Source: Alphaproteobacteria bacterium
Lineage (GTDB): Bacteria > Pseudomonadota > Alphaproteobacteria > Rs-D84 > SZUA-605
DNA: 64,000 bases
Reading direction: 5' to 3'
Assembly: GCA_031549385.1 (NCBI GenBank)
Contig: JAVBPW010000001.1
Span: forward strand, 160,001-224,000
Each line of letters starts with the position of its first letter. The stretch's first letter is position 1. The position numbers and the translations under genes are program-made. Under the pieces are notes generated by a model that ran no database searches, was not told the origin of the DNA, and saw nothing but the letters and a program-made list of their open reading frames with translations. This document shows positions 1 to 13,203 of the stretch, one piece after another.

Positions 1-817
1 CGCTTTACATGGATTACTTAGAGTTCGTGAATTTACTCAAGATGATGCTCATATATTTTGTACAAAAGCACAAATGGAAGAAGAATGTTTGAAGACTGTA
101 AAATTCATTTTTGAAATTTATAAAGGTTTTGGATTTGAAAATGTAGAAATCAAATTATCAACTCGTCCAGAAAAAAGAATCGGGTCAGATGAAATTTGGG
201 ATATTTCAGAAAAAGCATTAATGGATGTGTTAGACCATAATGGATATAAATATGAAATTCAAGAAGGTGAAGGTGCTTTTTATGGACCTAAACTTGAATT
301 TGTTTTGAAAGATTCTATTGGTCGTTCATGGCAAATGGGAACTGTGCAACTTGATATGAGCTTGCCAGAAAGATTTGATTTGAGCTATATAGCAGAAGAT
401 GGTTCAAAACAAAGACCTGTAATGTGGCACAGAGCTATTCTTGGTTCTATTGAAAGATTTTTGGGTATTTTAATTGAAAACTATGATGGAAAGTTTCCTT
501 TATGGCTTGCTCCTGTTAAAGCTGTTATGATTCCTATATCTGAAAAACATATTGAATATGCTGATAAGGTTTATGAAGAATTCAAAAAAGCTGGAATTAC
601 AATTGAAAAAGATTATTCAAATGAATCTATGCAAAAAAGAATTAGAGATGCTCAACTTCAAAAAATTCCTTATATGATCTTAGTAGGTCAAAAAGAAGAA
701 GATGAAGGAAAGATTTCTATTCGTACTCGTGATAATAAACAAGAAAATGGAATCGAAATTTCTGGATTTATAAAAGAAATACTTAATAAAATAAGTAACA
801 GAGACTTAGATATATAG
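1..817 (+). CDS. thrS: Threonyl-tRNA synthetase, 5'-truncated by the window edge
   Basis: Frame open from position 2 (ALHGLLRVREFTQDDAH), GEGAFYGPK, HRAILGSIERF motifs and a C-terminal anticodon-binding domain. Confidence 0.97.
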   Translation, partial: ALHGLLRVREFTQDDAHIFCTKAQMEEECLKTVKFIFEIYKGFGFENVEIKLSTRPEKRIGSDEIWDISEKALMDVLDHNGYKYEIQEGEGAFYGPKLEFVLKDSIGRSWQMGTVQLDMSLPERFDLSYIAEDGSKQRPVMWHRAILGSIERFLGILIENYDGKFPLWLAPVKAVMIPISEKHIEYADKVYEEFKKAGITIEKDYSNESMQKRIRDAQLQKIPYMILVGQKEEDEGKISIRTRDNKQENGIEISGFIKEILNKISNRDLDI

Positions 818-3861: not shown

Positions 3862-3938
3862 GCAAGTGTAGCTCAGTTGGCTAGAGCGCCTCCTTGCCAA
3901 GGAGGAGGTCGAGGGTTCGAGCCCCTTCACTTGCTCCA
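3862..3938 (+). tRNA. tRNA-Gly(GCC), integration target
   Basis: GCAAGTG/CACTTGC acceptor stem, CCTCC-TTGCCAA-GGAGG anticodon arm, CCA. Confidence 0.97.
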
Positions 3939-3939
3939 T
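3894..3939 (+). repeat. attL core (3' half of tRNA-Gly)
   Basis: TTGCCAAGGAGGAGGTCGAGGGTTCGAGCCCCTTCACTTGCTCCAT, identical to 11443-11488. Confidence 0.95.
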
Positions 3940-3944
3940 CATTT

Positions 3945-3973
3945 CCGCCACTTCCAAGAGATGTGGCTTTTTT
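3945..3973 (+). terminator. Intrinsic terminator after tRNA-Gly
   Basis: GCCAC...GTGGC stem followed by a T-tract. Confidence 0.6.
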
Positions 3974-3984
3974 ATTATCTGGCT

Positions 3985-4005
3985 GAGATACCACAGGGAT
4001 ACCAA
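3985..4005 (+). promoter_or_regulatory. Putative integrase arm-type site (left)
   Basis: GAGATACCACAGGGATACCAA, tandem GATACCA at 11-bp spacing, 18/21 identical to 11293-11313. Confidence 0.65.
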
Positions 4006-4019
4006 AACTCAGAAAACCC

Positions 4020-6329
4020 TTATAGCTTTACACTTAAAAGATTAAACATTTCCTCAATATAATTATTTGTATCTGCTATTTCTGAAGCATTTTCATAATT
4101 TCTTTCGAAGTCTAATTCTTCTGGTCTTTCATTATCTTTTATTTCATGATAGATATCGTCTAATCCTATTACAATATCTGAACAGTCTTTTAAATTTATC
4201 TCAAAAACATTCCTAATCTCATTGATATTATCTATAAATAATTCAACATTAAAAGCAGAATCACAGTTTTCCTTACACTCTGACAAACAAGAAGACTTAA
4301 GATATGATAAAAATGAGCTTTTTATTATATTTAACTTGTCGTTATCAAATAGATCTGTATGCTCCTCAAATATATCTTTTAAAATATCAAACTCATAACT
4401 ATCCATTTCTCCTGAATTGCTTCTTTTTACAACACCGTTTATTATATCTTGCTTTAGGTTTTCAATTTTTAATTTTTTAGTAAATTTTGAAAAGCTTATA
4501 TACTCCAAAATGGCTATTAACTCCCTATGCAATTCAAAATCTTCCTCTTTTAGTAAAATTTGAATTCCTTCTTCTATCATTTTTTCTAAAAATTCGGAAT
4601 TTACATAAGAGCTAATTTTTATTAAAGATAAGACCAAAGATCTTATATTTTTAATTTTCATAGATGATATTTTATTATCTTTTTCTTTTGTAAAAATTTT
4701 ATTTATCTTACTTAATAAATAAGTAAAATCTCTCGTTGAAGATTCTTTTTTATTTAACAAAAATATAACTCCAGAAATAGTTGCAAAATGATCCAGCCTA
4801 TTAACTATAGAAATTAAATCTTCAAGATTATAACTGCAATCTGTTATATAATTTTCAATAAAATCTTGTACTGATGGGTCAAAAAATGAAATGTTAGGAT
4901 ACGGGCTATAAGATGTCTTACTAATTTTTATAAAGCTACCTTCTAATTCTTTTAACGCTAGCTCGAAATCTATAGCTTCGTAGGGAGTATTATACTTATT
5001 ACATAAAACACTATGTAATCTGTTAAAGGTTTCTTTTAAATTATCATATCTGTTTATATAATTATTACTCTCTACATATATAGCCAGAAGTAAATGTTTT
5101 GATTTTTCACTTATTTGTTTTTCAAAAGCAAATCTCCATATCTTTTCAGGATTATTTAAATTATCTATAAAAAATTGGAAATAATCTTTTGCTGCTAAAT
5201 CTTTTAAATTTTTTACATTTGTCATCCATTCTACTAATCTAGGTGTATAACTTTTATGCTCTATTATTTTTTTATATTTTTTATCCTCTATTAGCTTAAT
5301 TATATGCTCTTTTTCAAGTTTAGAATAATATAAGTGATTATAAAGAATTCTTGCTTTTTCTATAAGTTCATAATCTTCTATAGTTATCAAAACCTTTTTT
5401 TCTTCTAATGAACTATTTTGAAAGCATTCTGATAGATGTATTGAATTAGTTAATAAATGCTCTCTTGTTGTTAATATGAATAGTTTATTATTTGTATTTT
5501 TTATTAAGTCCATGAATTTGATTAAATTTTCATCTTCATTTTTTCCTAAATCATTAGAAAATGTTTTTCCTAAAAAATCATCATAATAAAAAACTTGTTT
5601 AAGATCTTTATCAAAAATATTTCTTCCTTCTTCAACGTCTTTTATTATTTCAATTGGAGTAAATTTATCTTTTAATAGAGAATAAATTATCATTTCTGAT
5701 AAAAAAGTTTTCCCTATTCCTGCATTTCCTGATACTATTATAACTTTATTCTCATTTAATTTATCTAGCGCTTCATTAAAAGATTTTGTTTGAACATACT
5801 TTGGAGCTTTTTCTTGTATTCTTCTTATCAATTCTTCTGTTTTTACTATAGATGAATTGTTAAATTGTTGAAACAAAATTTCTTTTAAAACAGCTGAACT
5901 TGTAAGCCACAATTTTATATGTTTTTTTACTATATCATCATGTTTTCTTATAAGATTCAGAATATCATTCAAAGATATTATATCTTCAGTAGTTTTTATA
6001 TATGGAGACAACTCATTAAAAATCAGCTCTTTTTCTTGAGGATTCATTTCAACAGAAGCTACAACAATATATCTTTCAGGATTTAATTTTTTTATTTTTG
6101 GCAATTCGCTATTTTTTAATTGATACTTTAATGAATTAAACCCCGATTTGATATAGTGCTTACATTGTATTATTGTTTTTTTATTTAACTTAGTATATCT
6201 TAAGTCTATTCCTTTATCTGTTCCTGTTTTAAAACTCTCTATTAAAGGTATCTTAAAGTGCATTTGCAATAAATCTCTTACAAGTTCTTCAAAATCAATG
6301 TCTGTTAATTTTCCTAAATCATATTCCAT
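4020..6329 (-). CDS. Mrr-like restriction endonuclease fused to STAND (nSTAND3-like) NTPase; putative anti-phage protein
   Basis: FEELVRDLL...GTDKGIDL...IIQCKHY nuclease motif; GNAGIGKT Walker A, YYDDFLG Walker B, ILTTRE; long helical C-terminus. Confidence 0.8.
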   Translation of the reverse strand: MEYDLGKLTDIDFEELVRDLLQMHFKIPLIESFKTGTDKGIDLRYTKLNKKTIIQCKHYIKSGFNSLKYQLKNSELPKIKKLNPERYIVVASVEMNPQEKELIFNELSPYIKTTEDIISLNDILNLIRKHDDIVKKHIKLWLTSSAVLKEILFQQFNNSSIVKTEELIRRIQEKAPKYVQTKSFNEALDKLNENKVIIVSGNAGIGKTFLSEMIIYSLLKDKFTPIEIIKDVEEGRNIFDKDLKQVFYYDDFLGKTFSNDLGKNEDENLIKFMDLIKNTNNKLFILTTREHLLTNSIHLSECFQNSSLEEKKVLITIEDYELIEKARILYNHLYYSKLEKEHIIKLIEDKKYKKIIEHKSYTPRLVEWMTNVKNLKDLAAKDYFQFFIDNLNNPEKIWRFAFEKQISEKSKHLLLAIYVESNNYINRYDNLKETFNRLHSVLCNKYNTPYEAIDFELALKELEGSFIKISKTSYSPYPNISFFDPSVQDFIENYITDCSYNLEDLISIVNRLDHFATISGVIFLLNKKESSTRDFTYLLSKINKIFTKEKDNKISSMKIKNIRSLVLSLIKISSYVNSEFLEKMIEEGIQILLKEEDFELHRELIAILEYISFSKFTKKLKIENLKQDIINGVVKRSNSGEMDSYEFDILKDIFEEHTDLFDNDKLNIIKSSFLSYLKSSCLSECKENCDSAFNVELFIDNINEIRNVFEINLKDCSDIVIGLDDIYHEIKDNERPEELDFERNYENASEIADTNNYIEEMFNLLSVKL

Positions 6330-6422
6330 GTTATTTGCCTTTATTAACTTTTATTAAAAATAATAAATCAAAAAAATTATTTATTCAATCACAATACATT
6401 CTTAATTGGGGCTTCATTTAAA

Positions 6423-6451
6423 TTGACTTTTATTTTTATGTATTATATCAT
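6423..6451 (+). promoter_or_regulatory. Sigma70-type promoter for structured leader copy 1
   Basis: TTGACT-N17-TATCAT. Confidence 0.65.
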
Positions 6452-6457
6452 TTTTTT

Positions 6458-6655
6458 AATGCTGGGTGTTCCAGCGTTGAGGTGTAGTTACCTCTATGAC
6501 TAGCGTCTGCAGACGTTAAATGCCCTCAACCTTATGGTTGGAGGGCTCGCGAATAAGCTTAAGGCAAATAAGCGGCACTATCTAGTCATAGTAACTAACC
6601 TCCAGCCACCTCTTTTTAAGGTGGTTTTTAATTAAAAACAACAAATTGGAGGTTG
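6458..6655 (+). ncRNA. Structured cis-regulatory leader, C4/CI-like antisense RNA module, copy 1
   Basis: Several hairpins, long-range complement 6485-6503/6582-6597, terminator 6604-6629, anti-RBS 6597-6604; same architecture as 11582-11777. Confidence 0.7.
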
Positions 6656-6658
6656 TAT

Positions 6659-7345
6659 ATGAAAAAACTAGTTATTAGCTTTATTGCTTTATCAATATCA
6701 GGGTGTTCTTACCTGTCAGACTTAATGCCAACATATAAATGTTATTCATCAGAAAAAGCTGCTGCGTGTCTTTTACAGAAAGATTATGACTCTCTAATTA
6801 CAAAAGGATATTCTGAAGAAGACATTAAAACTCTTATTGGAAAATTGCTTGGAGGCGAATACACAGGCTATTGTGTTGAAGAAATTCAAGGAAAATGCAG
6901 ATTCAATTATACTTTAACAGATATAGAAAAAGTAGAAAAGACCCTTAAAGCAGATAAAGTTAGGGAAGAAAAAGAACAAGCTCAATCTGACAAGCAAGCT
7001 AAAGAAGTTCAAACTATAGAAAAGAAGTATAGTAAAAAATTCTGTTCAGAAGAATTACATTGGTATGGTTTGTCAAAACAGTCAATTCCTAAGAATTGTT
7101 TACTTTATGCCCAAACAGGATATTTAACAGTTATGCAACAAGCTCCTAGTGGTACTTTAGTTAATTTAAGATTGCCAGTGGGATATTCAGATCAAACCTA
7201 TTTTGTTGTTAGCAACAGTAAAGATTCAGGATTAGCTGATGACCAAGCTATCTCTCAAGGTATATTTGAAAATGTAGGCACTTATCAATATACATCAGTA
7301 ACGGGAGCAACAAGAACAGTCGTAAAATTAAAGAGATTACAATAG
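6659..7345 (+). CDS. Lipoprotein of unknown function (island cargo)
   Basis: MKKLVISFIALSISG-C lipobox; GGAGG RBS before ATG 6659. Confidence 0.8.
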   Translation: MKKLVISFIALSISGCSYLSDLMPTYKCYSSEKAAACLLQKDYDSLITKGYSEEDIKTLIGKLLGGEYTGYCVEEIQGKCRFNYTLTDIEKVEKTLKADKVREEKEQAQSDKQAKEVQTIEKKYSKKFCSEELHWYGLSKQSIPKNCLLYAQTGYLTVMQQAPSGTLVNLRLPVGYSDQTYFVVSNSKDSGLADDQAISQGIFENVGTYQYTSVTGATRTVVKLKRLQ

Positions 7346-7354
7346 GAGGTAATT

Positions 7355-7789
7355 ATGAAAAAAAATAAATATATTGAGAGTACATTATCAAAAGATGAAA
7401 ATATATTAGCTGTGGCTGAATTGCCTTGGATTAGCTATATAACTCCAGCGGCTATATTTTTATTTGCTTTTATAGCACTATTCAGCTCATTTGCTTTGTT
7501 TATAATAATCGGAGCAATAGGGTTATTAGTCTTAATGAGACTATTGGCGGTTGAGATGGTTTGTACTAATAAACGAGTAATCTTAAAGAAAGGCTTCTTA
7601 TTGCCTCATACTGAAGAAATCAGAATAGAAAAAATAGAATTTGTTTCTATGGGTGGAGATATGGGCGACTGTGGAACTTTGATATTTGGAGGAACAGGAG
7701 CTACTAAGGTCATCTTTAATGTTAAAAATCCAAAACAAACAAAGGTTGAATTTGAAGAAGTTATAGAAAGACTTCATAGGAAAAAGTAA
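7355..7789 (+). CDS. Membrane protein with bacterial PH (bPH_2-like) domain
   Basis: YIESTLSKDE start, two TM helices, VCTNKRVILKKG motif. Confidence 0.75.
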   Translation: MKKNKYIESTLSKDENILAVAELPWISYITPAAIFLFAFIALFSSFALFIIIGAIGLLVLMRLLAVEMVCTNKRVILKKGFLLPHTEEIRIEKIEFVSMGGDMGDCGTLIFGGTGATKVIFNVKNPKQTKVEFEEVIERLHRKK

Positions 7790-7794
7790 TATAG

Positions 7795-7861
7795 TTTCGA
7801 CAGTTATGGTTTTTGATATGGTTAATTTTATTGACTTGTATCGAAAATCAAGCTGTCGAAA
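7795..7861. repeat. Imperfect inverted repeat between convergent genes
   Basis: TTTCGACAGTTATGGTTTTTGATA ... TATCGAAAATCAAGCTGTCGAAA. Confidence 0.6.
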
Positions 7862-8281
7862 TCAATCTTCATCAAACACAAGATCTTCATCTGCTTCTAG
7901 AATTTGTTTTAGCTTCCTAATTTCGTTAATATCAACCGTTTCTCTTGGTTCGTGCTGTATTATTACACTTAAGGGCTTATCTTCACTTGTTAACCTAAAA
8001 ATCGTATCAAATGCCTTTATATTTCCATTTAATGCACTATCAATCATTTTTATAGCTAACGCCGTTCTTACATCTATTTCTTTTATCTCTAGCGTAGGAT
8101 AATCTTTTTGTAAACCTTCTGTATTTTGATATGGCGTATCTAATAGATTTTTTAGAACTCTTGATAATTCTTTCTTTTTCTTTCTAGATTCTCCACTTGC
8201 GATACCACCAATTCTACCTAGTTCTCTTGCTTCACTCTCGCTTCGTTCATTCATTGGGGTCAGATTTTTTTCATTTGCCAT
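7862..8281 (-). CDS. Phage-type KGG-motif protein, putative small terminase-like
   Basis: MANEKNLTPMNERSESEARELGRIGGIASGESRKKKK N-terminus; start taken as ATG 8281. Confidence 0.65.
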   Translation of the reverse strand: MANEKNLTPMNERSESEARELGRIGGIASGESRKKKKELSRVLKNLLDTPYQNTEGLQKDYPTLEIKEIDVRTALAIKMIDSALNGNIKAFDTIFRLTSEDKPLSVIIQHEPRETVDINEIRKLKQILEADEDLVFDED

Positions 8282-8933
8282 TGCTAAACATTCCTTCATA
8301 TTTTGATCTGGTGGATTGAGATAGTTGTCTGGATAAATAGATTTCAAGATTCTCTTTATTATGCAAGCAATAAGCTAGCCATTTAGTCCAATTCTCATCT
8401 AAATCCCTAAAATATACCATTTTTCTATTCATTGGATGCTTTTTGTAATCTCTACCAAATACTGTTCGCTTTAATATGCTTTTGATTTTAGCAATATCGT
8501 CAATTTGAATAATCCCGTGCAAGTGTAAGTTTTCTTTATCTGATTCATCTAGTATAAAACAATACTTGGGAATATAACCCAGCGTATTATTAAAGTTGGA
8601 ATTTATCCTCCTACGGATGAAATCTGCAGCATTGGATGAATTTTTTGCTTTTATTGCAAACTTGTATGAAAAATCAACAGTGAATGCTTTGAAGCCTAAA
8701 TCCTTACCAAGACCAAATACAAAAAACAATCTTTCAATATCGCTTAACCTAGACCAATTTTTTATCTTTCTCTCTATATCTCTAGATATATTTATAATAT
8801 ATACTAAAGAAGATTTATTTATTGTGGATCGGTCAACTTCTTGAAGAAATGAGTTTGATTGGGCTTTAAGACAATCTAAGCTCTCAAAAACACTTTCCTT
8901 TTTTGTAAAAGGATAATTCTCATAATTAAGCAT
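8271..8933 (-). CDS. Putative HUH-superfamily (rolling-circle Rep-like) endonuclease
   Basis: AFTVDF (motif I-like), YCFILDE...LHLHGIIQ (HUH motif II), WLAYCLHNK (candidate catalytic Tyr). Confidence 0.55.
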   Translation of the reverse strand: MLNYENYPFTKKESVFESLDCLKAQSNSFLQEVDRSTINKSSLVYIINISRDIERKIKNWSRLSDIERLFFVFGLGKDLGFKAFTVDFSYKFAIKAKNSSNAADFIRRRINSNFNNTLGYIPKYCFILDESDKENLHLHGIIQIDDIAKIKSILKRTVFGRDYKKHPMNRKMVYFRDLDENWTKWLAYCLHNKENLEIYLSRQLSQSTRSKYEGMFSNGK

Positions 8934-8943
8934 TACTGAATCC

Positions 8944-9168
8944 TTAAATTTGAGAAGAGCTTTGAACTACTTTGGATAGCCTTTTATCAACCCATTCATC
9001 TAAAGATTCTTTTTTATAAACAATACGTTTTGTTCCAAATTTTTGGTAAGAAGGACCTCCGCCTATTGTTATGTATTTTGATAGTGTTTTTTCAGATGTA
9101 GGAAGTCCTAGAACTCCTGTTAGATATTCAGAAGCTTCTCTTTTTGTAAAATATGTTTTTGATGTCAT
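8944..9168 (-). CDS. Excisionase/AlpA-like winged-helix protein
   Basis: YFTKREASEYL...TLSKY..GGGPSYQKFG..IVYKKESLDEWV. Confidence 0.85.
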   Translation of the reverse strand: MTSKTYFTKREASEYLTGVLGLPTSEKTLSKYITIGGGPSYQKFGTKRIVYKKESLDEWVDKRLSKVVQSSSQI

Positions 9169-9260
9169 AACTTTTCCTTTTGGTTATTTACTTTGGCTTT
9201 TCTGCCTTTCATAACTAAAAGATATTATTTGTTAAAAACATTTGTAAGACAGGTCACTAG

Positions 9261-9989
9261 CTAGACAGACTTTTTTCGTTTTCTAAGACTATTAGCTTCC
9301 TTAAACCAAGACTTTGAAATATCTCTACCTACCTTATAATCTTCTTGGATTTCTTCAAGAATCTCTAAATAAGAGGCGTCTCTATCGTAAGCTCCCGCAT
9401 TCCATTCTTTTAAGAATAATTCTTTTTCGGATTTTAGATTTTCTGATTTCTTGTAACTTGTCTTTTCACTACCTTTCTTATACCTTCTTGATTTTTCTAT
9501 ATTTTCAGTTTGAACTATTACATTTCCTATTTTCATAGTTTCTATTACTGAGCTGTGATAGTTATAAGATAATCTAAATAATTCTTGATAGTTTATATTG
9601 TTACTTAAATTAGCATTGTTTAATAGGTCAAACAACAGTTTTACTGCTTCTTTTATTTTGTTTGTCATAGATGGATTTCCTATACCTACATATAACGGAT
9701 CTAAAGTAGCATTTTTAACAATTTTATCTATTATTTCTTTTTTAGATTTAGATACCTGAATTTCCATTCTTTCTTTATTTATTAGGCATTCTGCGAGCAG
9801 ATTAACTGGGATTTTACTGTTATTAGTTTTGTTAATATCTTCTTCATTGTAAACTCTATAAATATAAACTAAAGACCTTATTGCGTTTTCAAATACACCC
9901 AAAAGTATTTCTTTGTCTTTTGGACTTATTTTTAGTTTTTTAATAATTTTAGGATAACTCTCTATAAGATATTCATAATCAACTTTCAT
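9261..9989 (-). CDS. Hypothetical protein co-oriented with integrase
   Basis: 242-aa ORF starting immediately after the int stop; possible C-terminal HTH. Confidence 0.65.
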   Translation of the reverse strand: MKVDYEYLIESYPKIIKKLKISPKDKEILLGVFENAIRSLVYIYRVYNEEDINKTNNSKIPVNLLAECLINKERMEIQVSKSKKEIIDKIVKNATLDPLYVGIGNPSMTNKIKEAVKLLFDLLNNANLSNNINYQELFRLSYNYHSSVIETMKIGNVIVQTENIEKSRRYKKGSEKTSYKKSENLKSEKELFLKEWNAGAYDRDASYLEILEEIQEDYKVGRDISKSWFKEANSLRKRKKSV

Positions 9990-9990
9990 A

Positions 9991-11271
9991 TTATGCCCTT
10001 TTTGATATATCTATGATTTTATCTTCTTTTGTTCCCTTTAGTGCGTGCTCTATCTCTGATGAAATATGGTTTGCTGAAGCTATTAAACTTTTATCTGGCA
10101 AATGAGAATATCTGTTAGTTATACCTTTTAGCTTATGTCCTACTAACCCAGCGAGGGTAAATTCTGTATAACCTAAATCAGCCCCTACACTTGTAAATGT
10201 ATGTCTTAACGAATGGATAGTAAATTTTTCTTTCTCTAGGATTTTATTTTCAGTCTCATCTTTGCTTTCCAATATACTAATAAATGAAGCCCTTAAATTT
10301 ACCAAATGTAACCCTGTCCTTCTTGAAGGAATAACCCACTCTGAATTGTTTTCTCTTCTTATTTGTTGTAATAATCTCAATGCACCTATACCAAAAGGTC
10401 TTATCTGTTTTCCTGTTTTTGTGTCTGGGAACCTAAAACATTGATTTTGAAAATCTACATATTGCCATTTTAATGTTAGTATTTCATTTTTTCTACAACC
10501 TGTAAGGAGAAGTAATTTTATAGCATTTACATCATCTTTGTAATTAACACTCCATTTAGGAATAGATAGGATATTTCCTAATTTCTTTATTTCCTCTAAT
10601 GTTAAAAACTCTTCCTTGGGCTTTAATGGTGGTTTTTTTATACCTCTTGCAGGATTTATTTGTAATTGCTCCTTTGATATCCCAAATTCAAGTATGGTTC
10701 CTAATAAAGAGACTGCTTTACCTGCTGCTGCATTTCCACCTCTTACTTTGATTCTTCCTCTTAGTTTATCACTTTTTTCATCTTTTCTTACTTTGTCCCC
10801 TTTTATTATTTCATATTTCATTGTCTCAATTTGACCTTTTGTGAGACTTTCTGTTGGAACTTTACCGATCAAAGGCTTTATTAGTCTTTCTATACAACTT
10901 CTATTTTCAATTATTGTCCTAGGTTTTTTGTGAGTAGTTGCTTCTTTCATATACCAATCACATAATTCACTTACAGTTTTCACCTCTTTGTTCTTTGATT
11001 TTTCTTTCGCTGGGTCTTTGCCTAACTCAATATCTCTTAATAGCCCTCTTGCTCTTTCTTTAGCTTGTTCCAATGTCATATTTGGAAAAGAACCTACCTT
11101 AAAAAATCTTTGCTGATCAAATTTATTTCTGTATTTGATACTAAAAGTTTTTACACCTGATGGATAAACCCTTAATGCAAAACCTGATAAAGCTTCATCA
11201 AAGTAATTTACTAACTTTTCCTTAACAGGAACTGTCTTAACAAAGGGTAATGTCATTTTTATAACCGCCAT
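9991..11271 (-). CDS. int: Tyrosine integrase with N-terminal arm-binding domain
   Basis: GFALRVYPSGVKTF arm domain; TGCRKNE, DTKTG, HSLRH, VGH...RY catalytic motifs; start MAVIK after AAGGA. Confidence 0.95.
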   Translation of the reverse strand: MAVIKMTLPFVKTVPVKEKLVNYFDEALSGFALRVYPSGVKTFSIKYRNKFDQQRFFKVGSFPNMTLEQAKERARGLLRDIELGKDPAKEKSKNKEVKTVSELCDWYMKEATTHKKPRTIIENRSCIERLIKPLIGKVPTESLTKGQIETMKYEIIKGDKVRKDEKSDKLRGRIKVRGGNAAAGKAVSLLGTILEFGISKEQLQINPARGIKKPPLKPKEEFLTLEEIKKLGNILSIPKWSVNYKDDVNAIKLLLLTGCRKNEILTLKWQYVDFQNQCFRFPDTKTGKQIRPFGIGALRLLQQIRRENNSEWVIPSRRTGLHLVNLRASFISILESKDETENKILEKEKFTIHSLRHTFTSVGADLGYTEFTLAGLVGHKLKGITNRYSHLPDKSLIASANHISSEIEHALKGTKEDKIIDISKRA

Positions 11272-11292
11272 TTTTAATCCTTTTATTTTTTC

Positions 11293-11313
11293 GAGATACC
11301 ACCAAGATACCAA
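11293..11313 (+). promoter_or_regulatory. Putative integrase arm-type site (right), just upstream of int
   Basis: GAGATACCACCAAGATACCAA, matches 3985-4005. Confidence 0.65.
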
Positions 11314-11442
11314 TAAATTGAAAAAGTGTTAATTTATTGTAGAACATAATAGTAGAAAAGTAAAGCTCAGAATGCTAGATTACTGGCATATATAGTAAAT
11401 AAAAGAATTTTTGAAAAGTTAAGAAAAGTATTCACGCCCATT

Positions 11443-11488
11443 TTGCCAAGGAGGAGGTCGAGGGTTCGAGCCCCTTCACTTGCTCCAT
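11443..11488 (+). repeat. attR core (tRNA-Gly 3' fragment)
   Basis: 46/46 identity with 3894-3939; the tRNA 5' half is absent. Confidence 0.95.
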
Positions 11489-11581
11489 TTTTTACCTGAT
11501 GTTTATCAGGGATTTTTTTTTATAAACTCATAGCTTTATTTTGTTATTGATTTATTTCTGTATTTAAGATACCTTTTTATT

Positions 11582-11777
11582 GATGTTGAGAATTTCAACA
11601 TTGAGGATTTGTACCCTCTCATTACGCGGATATACACCCGAAACTGTATGCCTACTAGTCTTTATGACTGGAAGGCATCAAAATAAGCTTAAGTGCAAAT
11701 ATGATGCACTATCGTAATGTAGGTACAAACTTCCAGTCGCTATTTAAACCAGCGACTTTTTTAATTTAAAGGAAGTT
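11582..11777 (+). ncRNA. Structured cis-regulatory leader, C4/CI-like antisense RNA module, copy 2
   Basis: Same helix order as copy 1 with compensatory sequences; shared AATAAGCTTAAG(T)GCAAATA and GCACTATC cores. Confidence 0.7.
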
Positions 11778-11779
11778 GT

Positions 11780-12643
11780 ATGAAAGACATTTTAGTTCAT
11801 GTTCACTTGTATTATGTTGAACAATGGGATTTTATTGAAAAGCATTTAAAAAATATAAATCCTTACAAATATAAATTATTTATTACTATGGTAAAAAAAG
11901 ATAAAGAGATAGAAGAAAAAATTTTAAATTTTAATAATAATGCTAAAATTATTATAACCGATAATATTGGGTATGATATATGGCCTTTTATTAATTTAAT
12001 TAATTCCATTAATCTTTATGATTATAGTTATATTATAAAATTGCATACAAAAAGGTTTGTTGAGCAAAACTACTCTTTGAATGGGTTCTCTATGCATGGA
12101 TATAAGTGGAGAGATTATTTATACTCTTTTTTAAAATCAAAAAAGGATTTTCAAAAATGTATTAAGTCTTTTGAAAAAGATGAAAAACTGGGTATGATAG
12201 GCAATTTCAAGATTACCTTAAAAAATCACAAGGGAGATAAAAACACTACTGAAAAAACAAAAGAAATAATGAATAAATTGGGCTATAATTCTAATATTAA
12301 TTATATCGCTGGAAGTATGTTTATGGTAAGAGCTGAATTATTTAATTTTATAAAAGCGATGAAACTGAAAAAAGAAAATTTTCCTACAAAATTAATTAGT
12401 GGTATTAGCGGTACTTTTGCTCATAATATGGAACAAATCTTTGGCATTTGTATAATAGCTCAAGGTTATAAAATTGAAGATATTTTTTCTTTTTGGGGAT
12501 ATAAAATACAATCTTTAATATTAGCTTTTTCAATCTTTTTGCAATATTTTAAAAAATTTATTTTTCAGAAAAAAATTACACGAAAAGGTAAGTTAATTGT
12601 TAAAATTCTTGGTATTCCTATTTGGAATTATAAAATTAAATGA
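11780..12643 (+). CDS. RgpF-like (rhamnan synthesis F) glycosyltransferase
   Basis: VHVHLYY, NIGYDIWPF, KLHTKR, WRDYL, AGSMF, AHNMEQ motifs. Confidence 0.8.
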   Translation: MKDILVHVHLYYVEQWDFIEKHLKNINPYKYKLFITMVKKDKEIEEKILNFNNNAKIIITDNIGYDIWPFINLINSINLYDYSYIIKLHTKRFVEQNYSLNGFSMHGYKWRDYLYSFLKSKKDFQKCIKSFEKDEKLGMIGNFKITLKNHKGDKNTTEKTKEIMNKLGYNSNINYIAGSMFMVRAELFNFIKAMKLKKENFPTKLISGISGTFAHNMEQIFGICIIAQGYKIEDIFSFWGYKIQSLILAFSIFLQYFKKFIFQKKITRKGKLIVKILGIPIWNYKIK

Positions 12644-12729
12644 CTTTTACTTTTATATTTATATTGATTTTTGGGAAAAGAGGGAGCATAATTCGTTACG
12701 TTAATTTATCAACTAAAAGGAGTTTGATT

Positions 12730-13203
12730 ATGAAAAAATTACTATCTGTGTTCGCACTTACATTATTAGTTTCTGCTGGGGCTAATGCTTGGTGTTTGTT
12801 TAACTGTGAAGAAGAAGCTAAAGAAGCTGCAACTGCTGCTAAAACTGAAGCTAAAGCTCAAAAAGAAGATATCAAAAATATGACAGAAGAACAAAAAGCT
12901 GATATCAAAGCTCAAAAAGACGCTGCTAAAAAAGATATTAAAGATAAAAAAGATTCTACAAAGAAAGACGTTAAAGACAAAAAAGACGCAGTGAAAAAAG
13001 AAGCTAAAGATAAAAAAACTGCTGCAAAAAAAGAAGTAAGCGATAAAAAGGCTGCTGTAAAAAATACTTCTGACTCTAAGAAAAAAGAAGTAAAGAGTAC
13101 TGCAGATGCAAAAAAGAAAGAAGCTAAAGATAAGAAAGCTGCTGCTACAAAAAAAGTAACTGATAAAAAAGAAGCTTTAAAAGCTGCTGCACTTGCTGAA
13201 TAG
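12730..13203 (+). CDS. Secreted Lys/Ala/Asp-rich protein with 11-aa repeats
   Basis: AAGGAG RBS, signal peptide ending ANA, KKDIKDKKDST/KKDVKDKKDAV/KKEAKDKKTAA repeats. Confidence 0.85.
   Translation: MKKLLSVFALTLLVSAGANAWCLFNCEEEAKEAATAAKTEAKAQKEDIKNMTEEQKADIKAQKDAAKKDIKDKKDSTKKDVKDKKDAVKKEAKDKKTAAKKEVSDKKAAVKNTSDSKKKEVKSTADAKKKEAKDKKAAATKKVTDKKEALKAAALAE

Follow-up and report, generated by a model that had tools for sequence, protein, structure and literature searches.

Among the closest described systems are RNAs that recognise an address in the leader from which they come. The CI RNA of phage P4 is encoded in a leader, and its seed pairs with a complementary box upstream in that same leader, a pairing associated with premature termination. 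Another P4 box, seqC, lies downstream, and there the CI RNA causes termination in trans. In the immI leader of P1 and P7, the annotated P1 record gives the order −10 box, hairpin, 4-bp hairpin with a1 in an 8-nt loop, b1 and c4, with the loop of the second c4 hairpin and the 3′ junction complementary to b1 and a1. After release from its leader as an RNA of about 77 nt, C4 represses in trans. Published work describes C4 as RNase P-processed and as working through its a′/b′ loops, and also describes multi-copy C4-like “Group 1” sRNAs of A. baumannii with unknown targets (PMC5320573). Furthermore, the sRNA-Xcc1 family (RF02221) is found in Xanthomonas integron cassettes, upstream of the symE toxin gene and in the same orientation (10.1101/2025.06.18.660453), and forms tandem arrays in Xylella.

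Here we analysed a window of 64,000 nucleotides from an alphaproteobacterial genome of 931 kb, in which a sequence-only reading had proposed a C4-related, self-targeting RNA switch in two copies.

Two structured leaders in the window

Both copies have the same layout, a sigma-70-like promoter followed by a 5′ hairpin, a structured leader, a terminator and, 15-30 nt further on, a gene. All of the strings and pairings listed by the sequence-only reading for the two copies are present where it placed them. The parts of copy 1 are as follows.

6423..6451, + strand, promoter-like site (TTGACT-17-TATCAT, 10/12 matches), ending 6 nt 5′ of the 5′ hairpin
6458..6478, + strand, 5′-terminal hairpin H0, AATGCTGG/CCAGCGTT
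6479..6494, + strand, hairpin Ha (GAGG/CCTC) with an 8-nt loop
6485-6491, + strand, a1-like seed S2 (TAGTTAC), within the Ha loop
6495..6503, + strand, b1-like seed S3 (TATGACTAG), the 5′ arm of helix P1c
6504..6515, + strand, small hairpin P2 (CGTC/GACG)
6522..6546, + strand, hairpin P3, in which S4 (6522-6531) sequesters S5
6536-6546, + strand, S5, the 5′ arm of the closing stem
6536..6607, + strand, C4/sRNA-Xcc1-like core (RF02221 37.4 bits, threshold 53)
6536-6544 with 6599-6607, + strand, closing stem
6547-6575, + strand, hairpin I with an A-rich conserved loop, inside the C4-like core
6577-6592, + strand, hairpin II, whose loop carries seed S3′ (6582-6590)
6591-6597, + strand, junction seed S2′, inside the C4-like core
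6597..6604, + strand, anti-Shine-Dalgarno (anti-SD) stretch AACCTCCA, made up of the last part of S2′ and S6
6604..6631, + strand, predicted intrinsic terminator (called by the scan at 6604-6626), whose 5′ arm has bases in common with the closing stem's 3′ arm
6647..7345, + strand, SD TGGAGGTT (6647-6654) and lipoprotein-like gene

The corresponding parts of copy 2 are these.

11582-11777, + strand, whole element, parts matching copy 1
11582..11602, + strand, hairpin H0
11603..11626, + strand, hairpin Ha and seeds, S2 (11608-11615) and then S3 (11620-11626)
11649..11677, + strand, hairpin P3 (S4 with S5)
11666..11738, + strand, C4-like core with closing stem 11666-11674/11730-11738
11713-11719 and 11722-11729, + strand, seeds S3′ and S2′, within the C4-like core
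11735..11762, + strand, terminator AGTCGCT/AGCGACT plus a T run
11771..12643, + strand, SD GGAAGTT (11771-11777), complementary to AACTTCC, and RgpF-like gene

In copy 1, the targets TAGTTAC and TATGACTAG (6485-6503) have exact complements at 6582-6597, and AACCTCCA is complementary to the SD TGGAGGTT. The lipoprotein-like gene that follows starts with an ATG at 6659 and encodes 228 aa, for which a Pfam search matched no family. The terminator of copy 2 was missed by our consensus scan because its loop is 9 nt. Minimum-free-energy folds of copies 1 and 2 reach −70.4 and −63.0 kcal/mol (z-scores −6.1 and −7.7), a stability that 0 of 200 shuffles attained. The genes near the two copies are an Mrr-nSTAND3 NTPase, the lipoprotein-like gene, an integrase and the RgpF-like gene.

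A large leader family with two covarying folds

A covariance model built from the single sequence of copy 1 scored copy 2 at 53.5 bits (E ~1e-11), recovered a third copy in the same genome at 47.8 bits (G000:C2:105942-106111, minus strand), and had matches in 78 of 101 related genomes. The two covarying copies first recognised are thus both real but an undercount, as the family has hundreds of members, some 430 or more, across related genomes, reaching dozens per genome in some very small ones, with 56 matches to an improved model in one 1-Mb genome. Family matches are confined to one bacterial class among the genomes sampled. This leader family is large and absent from Rfam at curated thresholds, and we found no description of it as an alphaproteobacterial family in the literature searched. 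The two cores that had been called invariant proved to be so only between the window copies. When 185,579 species genomes were scanned for the exact core, 27 loci came back, with the second core in 0 of 27; these therefore seem to be chance matches. The same scan of viral contigs returned 0 loci.

The layout of the window copies recurs in the family. A promoter of the form TTGnnn-16..18-TAnnnT is present in 67 of 94 members, ending 3-13 nt (mostly 6-7) 5′ of the hairpin, and a perfect hairpin of at least 6 bp (H0) adjoins the element in 89 of 94; the genes begin 15-30 nt past the terminator. S5 begins with GGU in most members, and the most conserved unpaired bases sit in hairpin I. A leader peptide was considered and dropped, as inspection of the alignment shows no conserved start codon at usable spacing.

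Next we examined the pairing of 59 aligned members and found that two mutually exclusive folds both covary, which bears out the idea of a structured RNA switch. In fold 1 the 5′ target pairs with the 3′ seed over a long helix, and fold 2 is a three-way C4-like fold. The counts for fold 1 lean towards it because the alignment (A6) was fitted to that fold: helix P1b/P1a is 95.2% paired compared to 77.7% in shuffles (0/500 reach this value) and at most 50.9% when slid (n = 59), with up to 34 double-sided changes per pair, while P1c is 95.6% paired with double-sided change in 9/9 pairs and P3 86.6% with double-sided change in 10/10 pairs. The small hairpin P2 is 98.1% paired; in hairpin Ha, 90% of cells are paired and 3 of 4 pairs vary on both sides. 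The C4-like fold, which was absent from the model that built the alignment, is 87.4% paired compared to 72.9% in shuffles (0/500) and no more than 49.3% after sliding. Within this fold, the closing stem reaches 83.1% pairing and shows double-sided change in 6 of 9 pairs, hairpin I covaries, and hairpin II occurs as ACUAU/AUAGU, ACAAU/AUUGU, ACCAU/AUGGU and ACCGU/ACGGU. Helix P1a (S1 with S6) varies mostly one-sidedly, and S1 covaries better with a local linker in Ha. Fold 1 is predicted to be more stable than fold 2 in 50 of 59 members, by a mean of 13.8 kcal/mol; when the 5′ target domain is removed, the gap narrows, averaging 4.3 kcal/mol (2.2 in copy 1).

The overlap of the closing stem with a terminator, proposed from the window copies, is likewise seen in the family, where the 3′ arm of this stem also tracks the downstream ribosome-binding site (RBS). 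By a hand count of the listed members, S6 of the CCUCC type (31 members) has GGAAG as SD in 0 of 31, while the CUUCC type (16 members) has GGAAG in 6, GGAAA in 2 and (C)CAGAAGU/GGAAGU matches in 3; the CUCCC type (8 members) has GGGAG in 6/8 and the GCUCC type (3 members) GGAGCUU in 1/3. S6 and SD are perfectly complementary over 7 nt or more in 18 of 59 own pairs compared to 11.9% of cross pairs, giving family-wide support to the suggested anti-RBS pairing; the match is under 6 nt in 37 of 59 members, and absent or only 4-5 nt in many. For comparison, TT follows the SD core in only 8 of 78 cases upstream of long ORFs in the window's own genome.

Resemblance to C4 and sRNA-Xcc1

At Rfam gathering thresholds, tRNAs alone reach score in the window. 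No riboswitch or other curated cis-regulatory leader matched, and the remaining low scorers are unrelated. The C4 model (RF01695; gathering threshold 45 bits, with P1 as positive control at 68.8 bits) matched 0 of 5 genomes at E ≤ 1 and neither copy 1 nor copy 2 at E ≤ 10, and the P1 c4 locus had no match to our model R2 at E ≤ 0.01. The c4-a1b1 model (RF03163, threshold 46.7 bits) stayed below threshold, its best match being a single member at 24.6 bits; it matched in 1 of 5 genomes, and 10 of 14 control genomes also match at that level. Accordingly, the search of Rfam proposed with the sequence-only reading turned out negative for C4, and the nearest family is sRNA-Xcc1 at sub-threshold scores: 51 of 51 matches, spread over all five genomes, lie below its 53 bits, the best at 49.6. 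This model has no match to copy 2, and its signal was lost in a 20-locus Rfam scan because of stricter filters and E-value scaling.

The likeness to C4 holds in that the parts of the family map one-to-one on a1/b1-c4 of P1, in the same order and shape as in the P1/P7 immI leader and likewise in the leader of the gene that the unit precedes. H0 corresponds to the first hairpin of c4-a1b1 and Ha has the shape of the second, so that the family, too, has a −10 box and a first hairpin, then a 4-bp hairpin whose 8-nt loop carries the a1 counterpart, and then a single-stranded b1 counterpart; the c4-a1b1 model aligns to its one 24.6-bit member in exactly the register of P1. In the three-way domain, S3′ and S2′ occupy the positions of b′ and a′ of P1. 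The likeness fails at the Rfam C4 model and at a second target. P1 has a2/b2 sites at the RBS, whereas a search of the window's own genome with the exact seeds of the two copies found no such downstream target, each exact target occurring once in the 931 kb, at its cis site. The classical C4 mode, in which loops bind at an RBS, is therefore inapplicable here. Unlike P1, the family has a strand, S4, to sequester the closing stem, and this stem overlaps an intrinsic terminator and carries an anti-SD in its 3′ arm. The copy number, up to 56 matches in a single 1-Mb genome, differs as well.

Like the A. baumannii Group 1 sRNAs, the family has many C4-like copies per genome; unlike them, it fails the Rfam C4 model that Group 1 matches, lies directly 5′ of genes and is coupled to a terminator and an SD. 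sRNA-Xcc1 is the best Rfam match to the core, sharing the closing stem, a first hairpin with an A-rich loop and a second hairpin; in the accessible part of its description it is a trans-acting sRNA, without an a1/b1-type partner, terminator overlap or SD link. The likeness to the P4 CI RNA is one of described behaviour. Collectively, we conclude from comparative sequence evidence that the family appears to be a previously undescribed form of the C4-type leader antisense system, one that has expanded greatly.

Candidate modes of regulation

At the level of sequence, the anatomy, both folds, the diversity of the seeds and the link between S6 and the SD are shown. For 6330-7345, no RNA run was listed as containing the sequence, and two runs on offer had almost none of its sequence words. 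The seeds differ between copies 1 and 2 and, in a relative, even between units with 90-100% coding identity, in line with the orthogonal seeds first claimed. A set of 16 paralogous leader-HTH units from one genome includes 19 pairs with a coding identity of 90% or more, and for these the mean identity is 0.80 in the non-seed leader and 0.52 in the seeds; one pair has 100% identical coding sequences and seeds that are 34% identical. The seeds are the fastest-changing part of the leader, with a conservation of 0.46 compared to 0.66 at third codon positions of adjacent paralogous genes. Tandem arrays include gene-less units with their own promoter and terminator, whose seeds are the same as those of the adjoining gene-linked unit.

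We hypothesize, with about an even chance of being right, that each element is a self-contained C4-type promoter-leader unit with copy-specific negative autoregulation. The transcript would open with a protective hairpin followed by the a1/b1-like target, S2 in the loop of Ha and S3 single-stranded, and some 80 nt further on the C4-like three-way domain would display their exact complements, with S3′ on the hairpin II loop and S2′ at the 3′ junction. In fold 1, target and seeds would zip into the ~21-bp helix P1 while S4 holds S5 in P3, and the full terminator would form. In fold 2, S5 and S6 would close the C4-like domain, taking 2-3 bp or more from the terminator and tying up S6. When free, S6 could act as an anti-SD and mask the RBS of the downstream gene. 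A leaky terminator may then yield mostly short leader RNA and some mRNA. The short RNA, probably cleaved in the way C4 is, at the 5′ border of the closing stem, would expose its seeds and pair in trans only with leaders that bear the matching a1/b1 address, and such pairing may displace the cis helix and leave S6 free to mask the SD. Each gene would in effect be “immune” to its own RNA, the sign of the regulation being a guess.

Several observations argue for autoregulation: the placement of promoter, H0 and gene, which is that of a leader and not of a free-standing gene, the topology shared with P1, the fold z-scores and the covariation of both folds, S6 tracking the SD, the fold gap that shrinks without the 5′ target domain, seeds that behave as addresses, and the precedents of C4 and sRNA-Xcc1. 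Other observations argue against it. No second a2/b2-type target was found in the window's own genome, the pairing is explicable by a cis helix alone, and P1a, needed as an anti-anti-SD, changes mostly on one side. Since the terminator stays whole in fold 1 and in the P3 state alike, the sequence does not reveal an efficient “on” route. The short SD matches in 37 of 59 members and the silence of the Rfam C4 model also weigh against it, as does the ACCA that would fit RNase P 3′ of the closing stem, which is not conserved (copy 2 has GCU there). Furthermore, gene conversion could account for the seeds shared by tandem units, and recombination rather than selection for the mosaic pattern of leaders and coding sequences.

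A conditional attenuator and translational switch that acts purely in cis, either like a riboswitch or through a protein or temperature, is a possible explanation that we nonetheless consider doubtful. Here the “seeds” would simply form the two sides of a structural helix, with no action in trans, and a common signal at the A-rich loop of hairpin I or at the three-way junction would shift the balance between fold 1/P3, with terminator on and SD masked, and the C4-like fold, with terminator weakened and SD free. Covariation of both folds fits this explanation as well, each seed has exactly one partner in the genome, in cis, and the terminator overlap and S6/SD complement are classic features of an expression platform. 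The most conserved unpaired bases lie where a binding site would be expected, and dozens of copies before varied genes would suit a global signal. However, no Rfam riboswitch or leader family matches, the rapid change of the seeds is unexpected of a merely structural helix, some tandem units have their own promoter and terminator but no gene, and the layout copies a known trans-acting antisense system. The gene-less units point in another direction too, as do the element's own promoter and terminator, the sub-threshold sRNA-Xcc1 matches in all five genomes, and the presence of members on islands and on four predicted viral contigs: the element could be a free-standing trans-acting sRNA gene of sRNA-Xcc1 or C4 type, with targets elsewhere such as phages or plasmids and the downstream gene a mere neighbour. 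We consider this improbable, since no other target of either seed was found in the window's own genome, the gene lies too close to the terminator to leave room for its own promoter, and its SD co-varies with S6 of the RNA.

High copy number, tandem arrays and the frequent location on islands beside tRNA genes would also be expected of a repeat acting as DNA, that is, a MITE-like element, a recombination site or an IS110/IS1111 bridge/seek RNA locus. Such an origin is scarcely credible given that the signal is strand-specific (the copy 1 model scores 196 bits on its own strand and 23.5 bits on the reverse strand), that G-U pairs are many (30 of 59 members at one P1a pair, for example), that promoter, terminator and SD come in fixed order, and that the helices covary rather than conserve sequence. 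No transposase family, DEDD-type included, was found among the neighbours of either window copy, and a bridge or seek RNA was dropped on that ground. Binding of Hfq to the A-rich loop, as in isrK, was also dropped, as no Hfq gene was found in the genome (97% complete). RNase P RNA is present in this genome.

Under the autoregulation hypothesis, each accessory gene is probably throttled via its own private RNA address. If it holds, the C4 principle of a leader RNA recognising an address in its own leader would be more than a phage curiosity and would be a main means of controlling accessory genes in a reduced-genome lineage, reaching about 1 in 20 genes in one relative. As a1/b1 are the sole seed partners here, the “putative” a1/b1 sites of P1 would gain a testable role. 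An extension that we regard as unlikely is a genome-wide, RNA-addressed control layer in Hfq-less bacteria of ~1 Mb, with a private switch per accessory or “contingency-type” gene that is heritably on or off, or dose-limited. This would imply dozens of orthogonal seed pairs and expression set without DNA change, by feedback of the processed leader RNA on its own a1/b1 address, an RNA counterpart of phase variation built from natural programmable orthogonal attenuators. The family further ties sRNA-Xcc1 to the C4 architecture. Its seed pairs, which occur naturally and number in the hundreds, would provide mutually orthogonal parts for controlling genes with RNA, and the family could be added to Rfam. 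Among the genes that family members precede are those for type III mod, opacity-type porins, pilin-like proteins, glycosyltransferases and near-identical small HTH paralogues, a cargo unlike the icd and ant of P1.

A family of promoter-linked leaders

The two leader RNAs of the window, copy 1 and copy 2, represent a real finding that is richer than first described. A covariance model based solely on copy 1 (R1) scores copy 2 at 53.5 bits and a third copy, located on another contig of the same genome and preceding a type III restriction-modification methylase gene, at 47.8 bits. At E ≤ 0.01, R1 matches 78 of the 101 genomes of the same order and 61 of 64 within one genus, with about 427 matches across the order sample and a maximum of 28 per genome. 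The genome search suggested by the sequence-only reading of this DNA therefore returned a real family, and the two copies of that reading were an undercount. A model from 33 members (R2) gives 56 matches in one related 1.0-Mb genome (G048), and the scale is notable: in one genome a leader occurs about every 18 kb. Of 151 genomes sampled across the class, R2 also matched 14, 12 of which belong to other families; in the phylum-wide sample it matched 4 of 151, all 4 labelled 'same class', as were all genomes with family matches outside the order. A motif scan of IMG/VR led to four predicted viral contigs (L124-L127), confirmed by R2 at 78-129 bits, in which members precede unrelated genes.

For 94 distinct members with sufficient upstream sequence, we found that the element adjoins a perfect hairpin of 6 bp or more in 89, and that TTGnnn-16..18-TAnnnT is present in 67, ending 3-13 nt (mostly 6-7) before the hairpin. 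The start codon usually lies 15-30 nt past the terminator T run, with a strong Shine-Dalgarno (SD) sequence ahead, so that a separate gene promoter has no space. Judged by these signals, each member is a predicted transcription unit and at the same time a leader. Among 47 downstream proteins scanned for Pfam families, 6 carry HTH_3, 3 are DNA methylases (C5, type III, type IIG), 2 are outer-membrane beta-barrel or opacity-type porins, and UvrD helicase, RgpF, GT10 glycosyltransferase and SMC_N/AAA_21 ATPase occur once each; most have no Pfam family. By eye, many N-termini are signal-peptide-like or lipoprotein-like and two proteins are pilin-like.

The window copies are laid out as follows.

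6423-6451: copy 1 promoter-like site, TTGACT-17-TATCAT, ending 6 nt before the 5′ hairpin (consensus scan)
6458-6478 to 6647-6654: copy 1 whole element, from 5′ hairpin to ribosome-binding site
6604-6626: copy 1 terminator (consensus scan)
11582 to 11777: copy 2 whole element

In copy 2 the consensus scan called neither promoter nor terminator; the candidate promoter is weaker, and the terminator was missed because its 9-nt loop exceeds the limit of the scan. The minimum free energies are -70.4 (copy 1) and -63.0 kcal/mol (copy 2), with z-scores of -6.1 and -7.7; the 200 shuffles were all less stable. The sequence description of both copies was borne out: the two-part targets lie at the positions first read, each with its exact complement some 100 nt further downstream, and each exact target occurs only once in the 931-kb genome. 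The exact strings proposed as invariant cores are shared by the two window copies and are not conserved beyond them.

Two exclusive folds

We examined a 59-member alignment for two structures. Fold 1 combines the target-seed helix (P1a, P1b, P1c), the spacer hairpin P3 (S4 with S5) and the full terminator; fold 2 is a closed three-way C4-like domain in which S5 pairs with S6, the anti-SD stretch.

Pairing and double-sided changes in the 59-member alignment, which is itself fitted to fold 1 and has fold 2 outside its model
Fold 1, P1a+P1b: 95.2% of cells paired (77.7% shuffled, at most 50.9% slid); 7 to 34 double-sided changes per pair in 5 of 7 P1b pairs
Fold 1, P1c seed helix: 95.6%; changes in all 9 pairs
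Fold 1, P2: 98.1%; all 4 pairs
Fold 1, P3 (S4 with S5): 86.6%; all 10 pairs
Fold 1, hairpin I stem: 97.8%; all 4 pairs
Fold 2, whole: 87.4% (72.9% shuffled, reached by 0 of 500; at most 49.3% slid)
Fold 2, closing stem (S5 with S6): 83.1%; 6 of 9 pairs
Fold 2, hairpin Ha (S1 with linker): 90.0%; 3 of 4 pairs
Fold 2, hairpin II: 73-82%; 4 of 5 pairs

Variants of the closing stem include GGUUGGAGG/CCUCCAACC, GACUGGAAG/CUUCCAGUC, GGCCGGGAG/CUCCCGGCC and GGCCAGAAG/CUUCUGGCC, and those of hairpin II are ACUAU/AUAGU, ACAAU/AUUGU, ACCAU/AUGGU and ACCGU/ACGGU. The two folds are incompatible at three points: S5 pairs with either S4 or S6, the downstream complement S3′ is either the hairpin II loop or an arm of P1c, and P1b takes the last two bases of hairpin II. 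These comparative data show that the RNA of the promoter-leader unit can take up two exclusive folds, maintained in evolution, that differ in seed pairing, terminator integrity and the holder of the anti-SD.

In 50 of 59 members the calculated energies favour fold 1, with an average margin of 13.8 kcal/mol. Once the a1/b1-like domain is removed and just the 3′ part is folded, the mean gap between P3 and the closed state is 4.3 kcal/mol (SD 9.8; 44 of 59 members, those projectable), with 2.2 for copy 1 and 7.7 for copy 2. Because the two states are much closer without the 5′ target domain, its availability could, in these energy models, tip the balance between folds.

The overlap between closing stem and terminator holds family-wide, since S6 and the terminator 5′ arm always have 2-3 nt in common. 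When the closing stem is enforced, the predicted folds of copies 2 and 3 leave the terminator only 3-4 bp, and the terminator hairpin of copy 1 is unformed. The SD region is complementary to S6 and its two preceding bases, and in a manual count S6 type tracks SD type.

S6 type and SD in 59 members
CCUCC, 31 members: GGAAG in none, GGAGGUU in many
CUUCC, 16 members: 6 GGAAG, 2 GGAAA, 3 (C)CAGAAGU/GGAAGU matches, 4 GGAG(G), 1 none
CUCCC, 8 members: GGGAG in 6
GCUCC, 3 members: GGAGCUU in 1
ACACCCC, 1 member: match absent

S6 and SD are perfectly complementary over 7 nt or more in 18 of 59 own pairs vs 11.9% of cross pairs, and over 8 nt or more in 7 of 59 vs 2.8%. As background, an SD core of this kind lies upstream of only 78 of 677 long ORFs in the window's genome, with TT following in only 8 of the 78. 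The anti-RBS pairing first proposed gains support from this tracking and enrichment, but many members have a short match or none, so that the link applies to a large subset rather than to the whole family.

Relation to C4 and a proposed model of feedback

At curated thresholds Rfam returned only tRNAs. At relaxed thresholds the copy 1 core scored 37.4 bits against sRNA-Xcc1 (threshold 53), the nearest family, which had 51 sub-threshold matches in 5 of 5 genomes tested (best 49.6 bits); C4, the expected relative, matched in 0 of 5, and c4-a1b1 gave a single weak match (24.6 bits). We take the architecture to be the decisive comparison. In the phage P1 record AF234172, the P1c4 promoter's -10 box is followed by a 7-bp hairpin, a 4-bp hairpin whose 8-nt loop contains a1, single-stranded b1, a spacer hairpin and c4, whose second-hairpin loop is complementary to b1 and whose 3′ junction is complementary to a1. 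In the family these parts recur, with their order and roles unchanged: the 5′ hairpin H0, hairpin Ha with seed S2 in its loop, seed S3, spacers P2 and P3, and a core whose hairpin II loop holds S3′ and whose junction holds S2′. Unlike P1, it lacks a2/b2 sites, judged from the seeds of the two window copies in their own genome, has an S4 strand, an anti-SD and a terminator that overlaps the closing stem, and differs in cargo and copy number. The proposed kinship with P1 C4 thus stands for layout and roles, but not for the a2/b2 sites or Rfam scores. On this shared defining layout, and with Rfam membership scores failed, we class the family, which gives a1/b1-type sites a testable role, as a new variant of the C4/sRNA-Xcc1 type that has expanded greatly.

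The portions of published work consulted define c4 and c4-a1b1 (PMC2864571) and describe excision of C4 by RNase P at a GGW site, its action via a′/b′ loops and many C4-like sRNAs in A. baumannii (PMC5320573), sRNA-Xcc1 ahead of symE in integron cassettes of Xanthomonas (preprint 10.1101/2025.06.18.660453) and tandem sRNA-Xcc1 arrays beside C4 and isrK matches in Xylella (PMC12189769); in that literature, supplementary files aside, we found no description of the present leader family. The window's genome (97% complete) has RNase P RNA at C7:375038-375325, and no Hfq gene (PF17209) was found in it.

By analogy with C4, we hypothesize that the abundant terminated leader would be a small-RNA precursor. 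The small RNA, parted from its own a1/b1 domain, would pair with newly made transcripts of that unit at the matching address and displace the cis helix, leaving S6 free to mask the SD. The outcome would be copy-specific negative feedback. We consider the chances of such a C4-like trans-acting leader RNA evenly balanced; its weakest parts, which we infer, are the direction of regulation and the action in trans. The main rival, a purely cis switch responding to a common signal, seems to us rather unlikely.

The seeds bear on this choice. Among 37 distinct full-length copies from the 56-match genome (loci L047, L092-L120), 16 precede monocistronic, near-identical 75-aa HTH genes (MAKLLIDANYYG...). 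Mean pairwise identity in these 16 units is 0.79 for the coding sequence (0.66 at third positions), 0.81 for P3, 0.78 for P2, 0.68 for S2 and 0.46 for linker plus S3. In the 19 pairs with coding sequences at least 90% identical, mean seed identity is 0.52, and below 0.6 in 15; one pair has 100% identical coding sequences and 34% identical seeds, and another, apparently of recent duplicates, has identical seeds. Some genes are preceded by tandem units that lack a gene but have a promoter and terminator of their own; these units share seeds with the adjoining gene-linked unit. Arrays of 2-4 complete units (promoter, leader, terminator) with no intervening ORF occur at L100 876-1648, L110 1113-1650 and L112 1501-2022, and in each the last two units have common seeds. 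Between paralogous loci the seeds differ. Divergence and tandem sharing are each consistent with selection for private addresses, which would imply some trans action; recombination and gene conversion could also produce both patterns. The family is also a natural collection of orthogonal seeds, of interest to RNA biologists.

Surroundings of the window copies

Copy 1 lies inside a 7.5-kb integrative island, and the gene downstream of it is lipoprotein-like, without a Pfam family. Copy 2 lies just beyond the right repeat of the island, ahead of an RgpF-like gene.

3894-11493: integrative island, flanked by a 51-nt direct repeat (96% identical) corresponding to the 3′ half of tRNA-Gly(GCC)
3894-3944 and 11443-11493: island direct repeats
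4020-6329, minus: Mrr_cat + nSTAND3 NTPase gene, divergent from copy 1
8944-9168, minus: HTH_17 gene
9991-11313, minus: tyrosine integrase

Directly 3′ of the RgpF-like gene, an ORF at 12640-13203 (187 aa), without a Pfam family, consists mostly of 33-nt (11-aa, Lys/Ala-rich) tandem repeats. A tRNA called at 884-955 scores just 46.5 bits; two pairs at the acceptor-stem base are mismatched, and it may be a degenerate tRNA or tRNA-like element.
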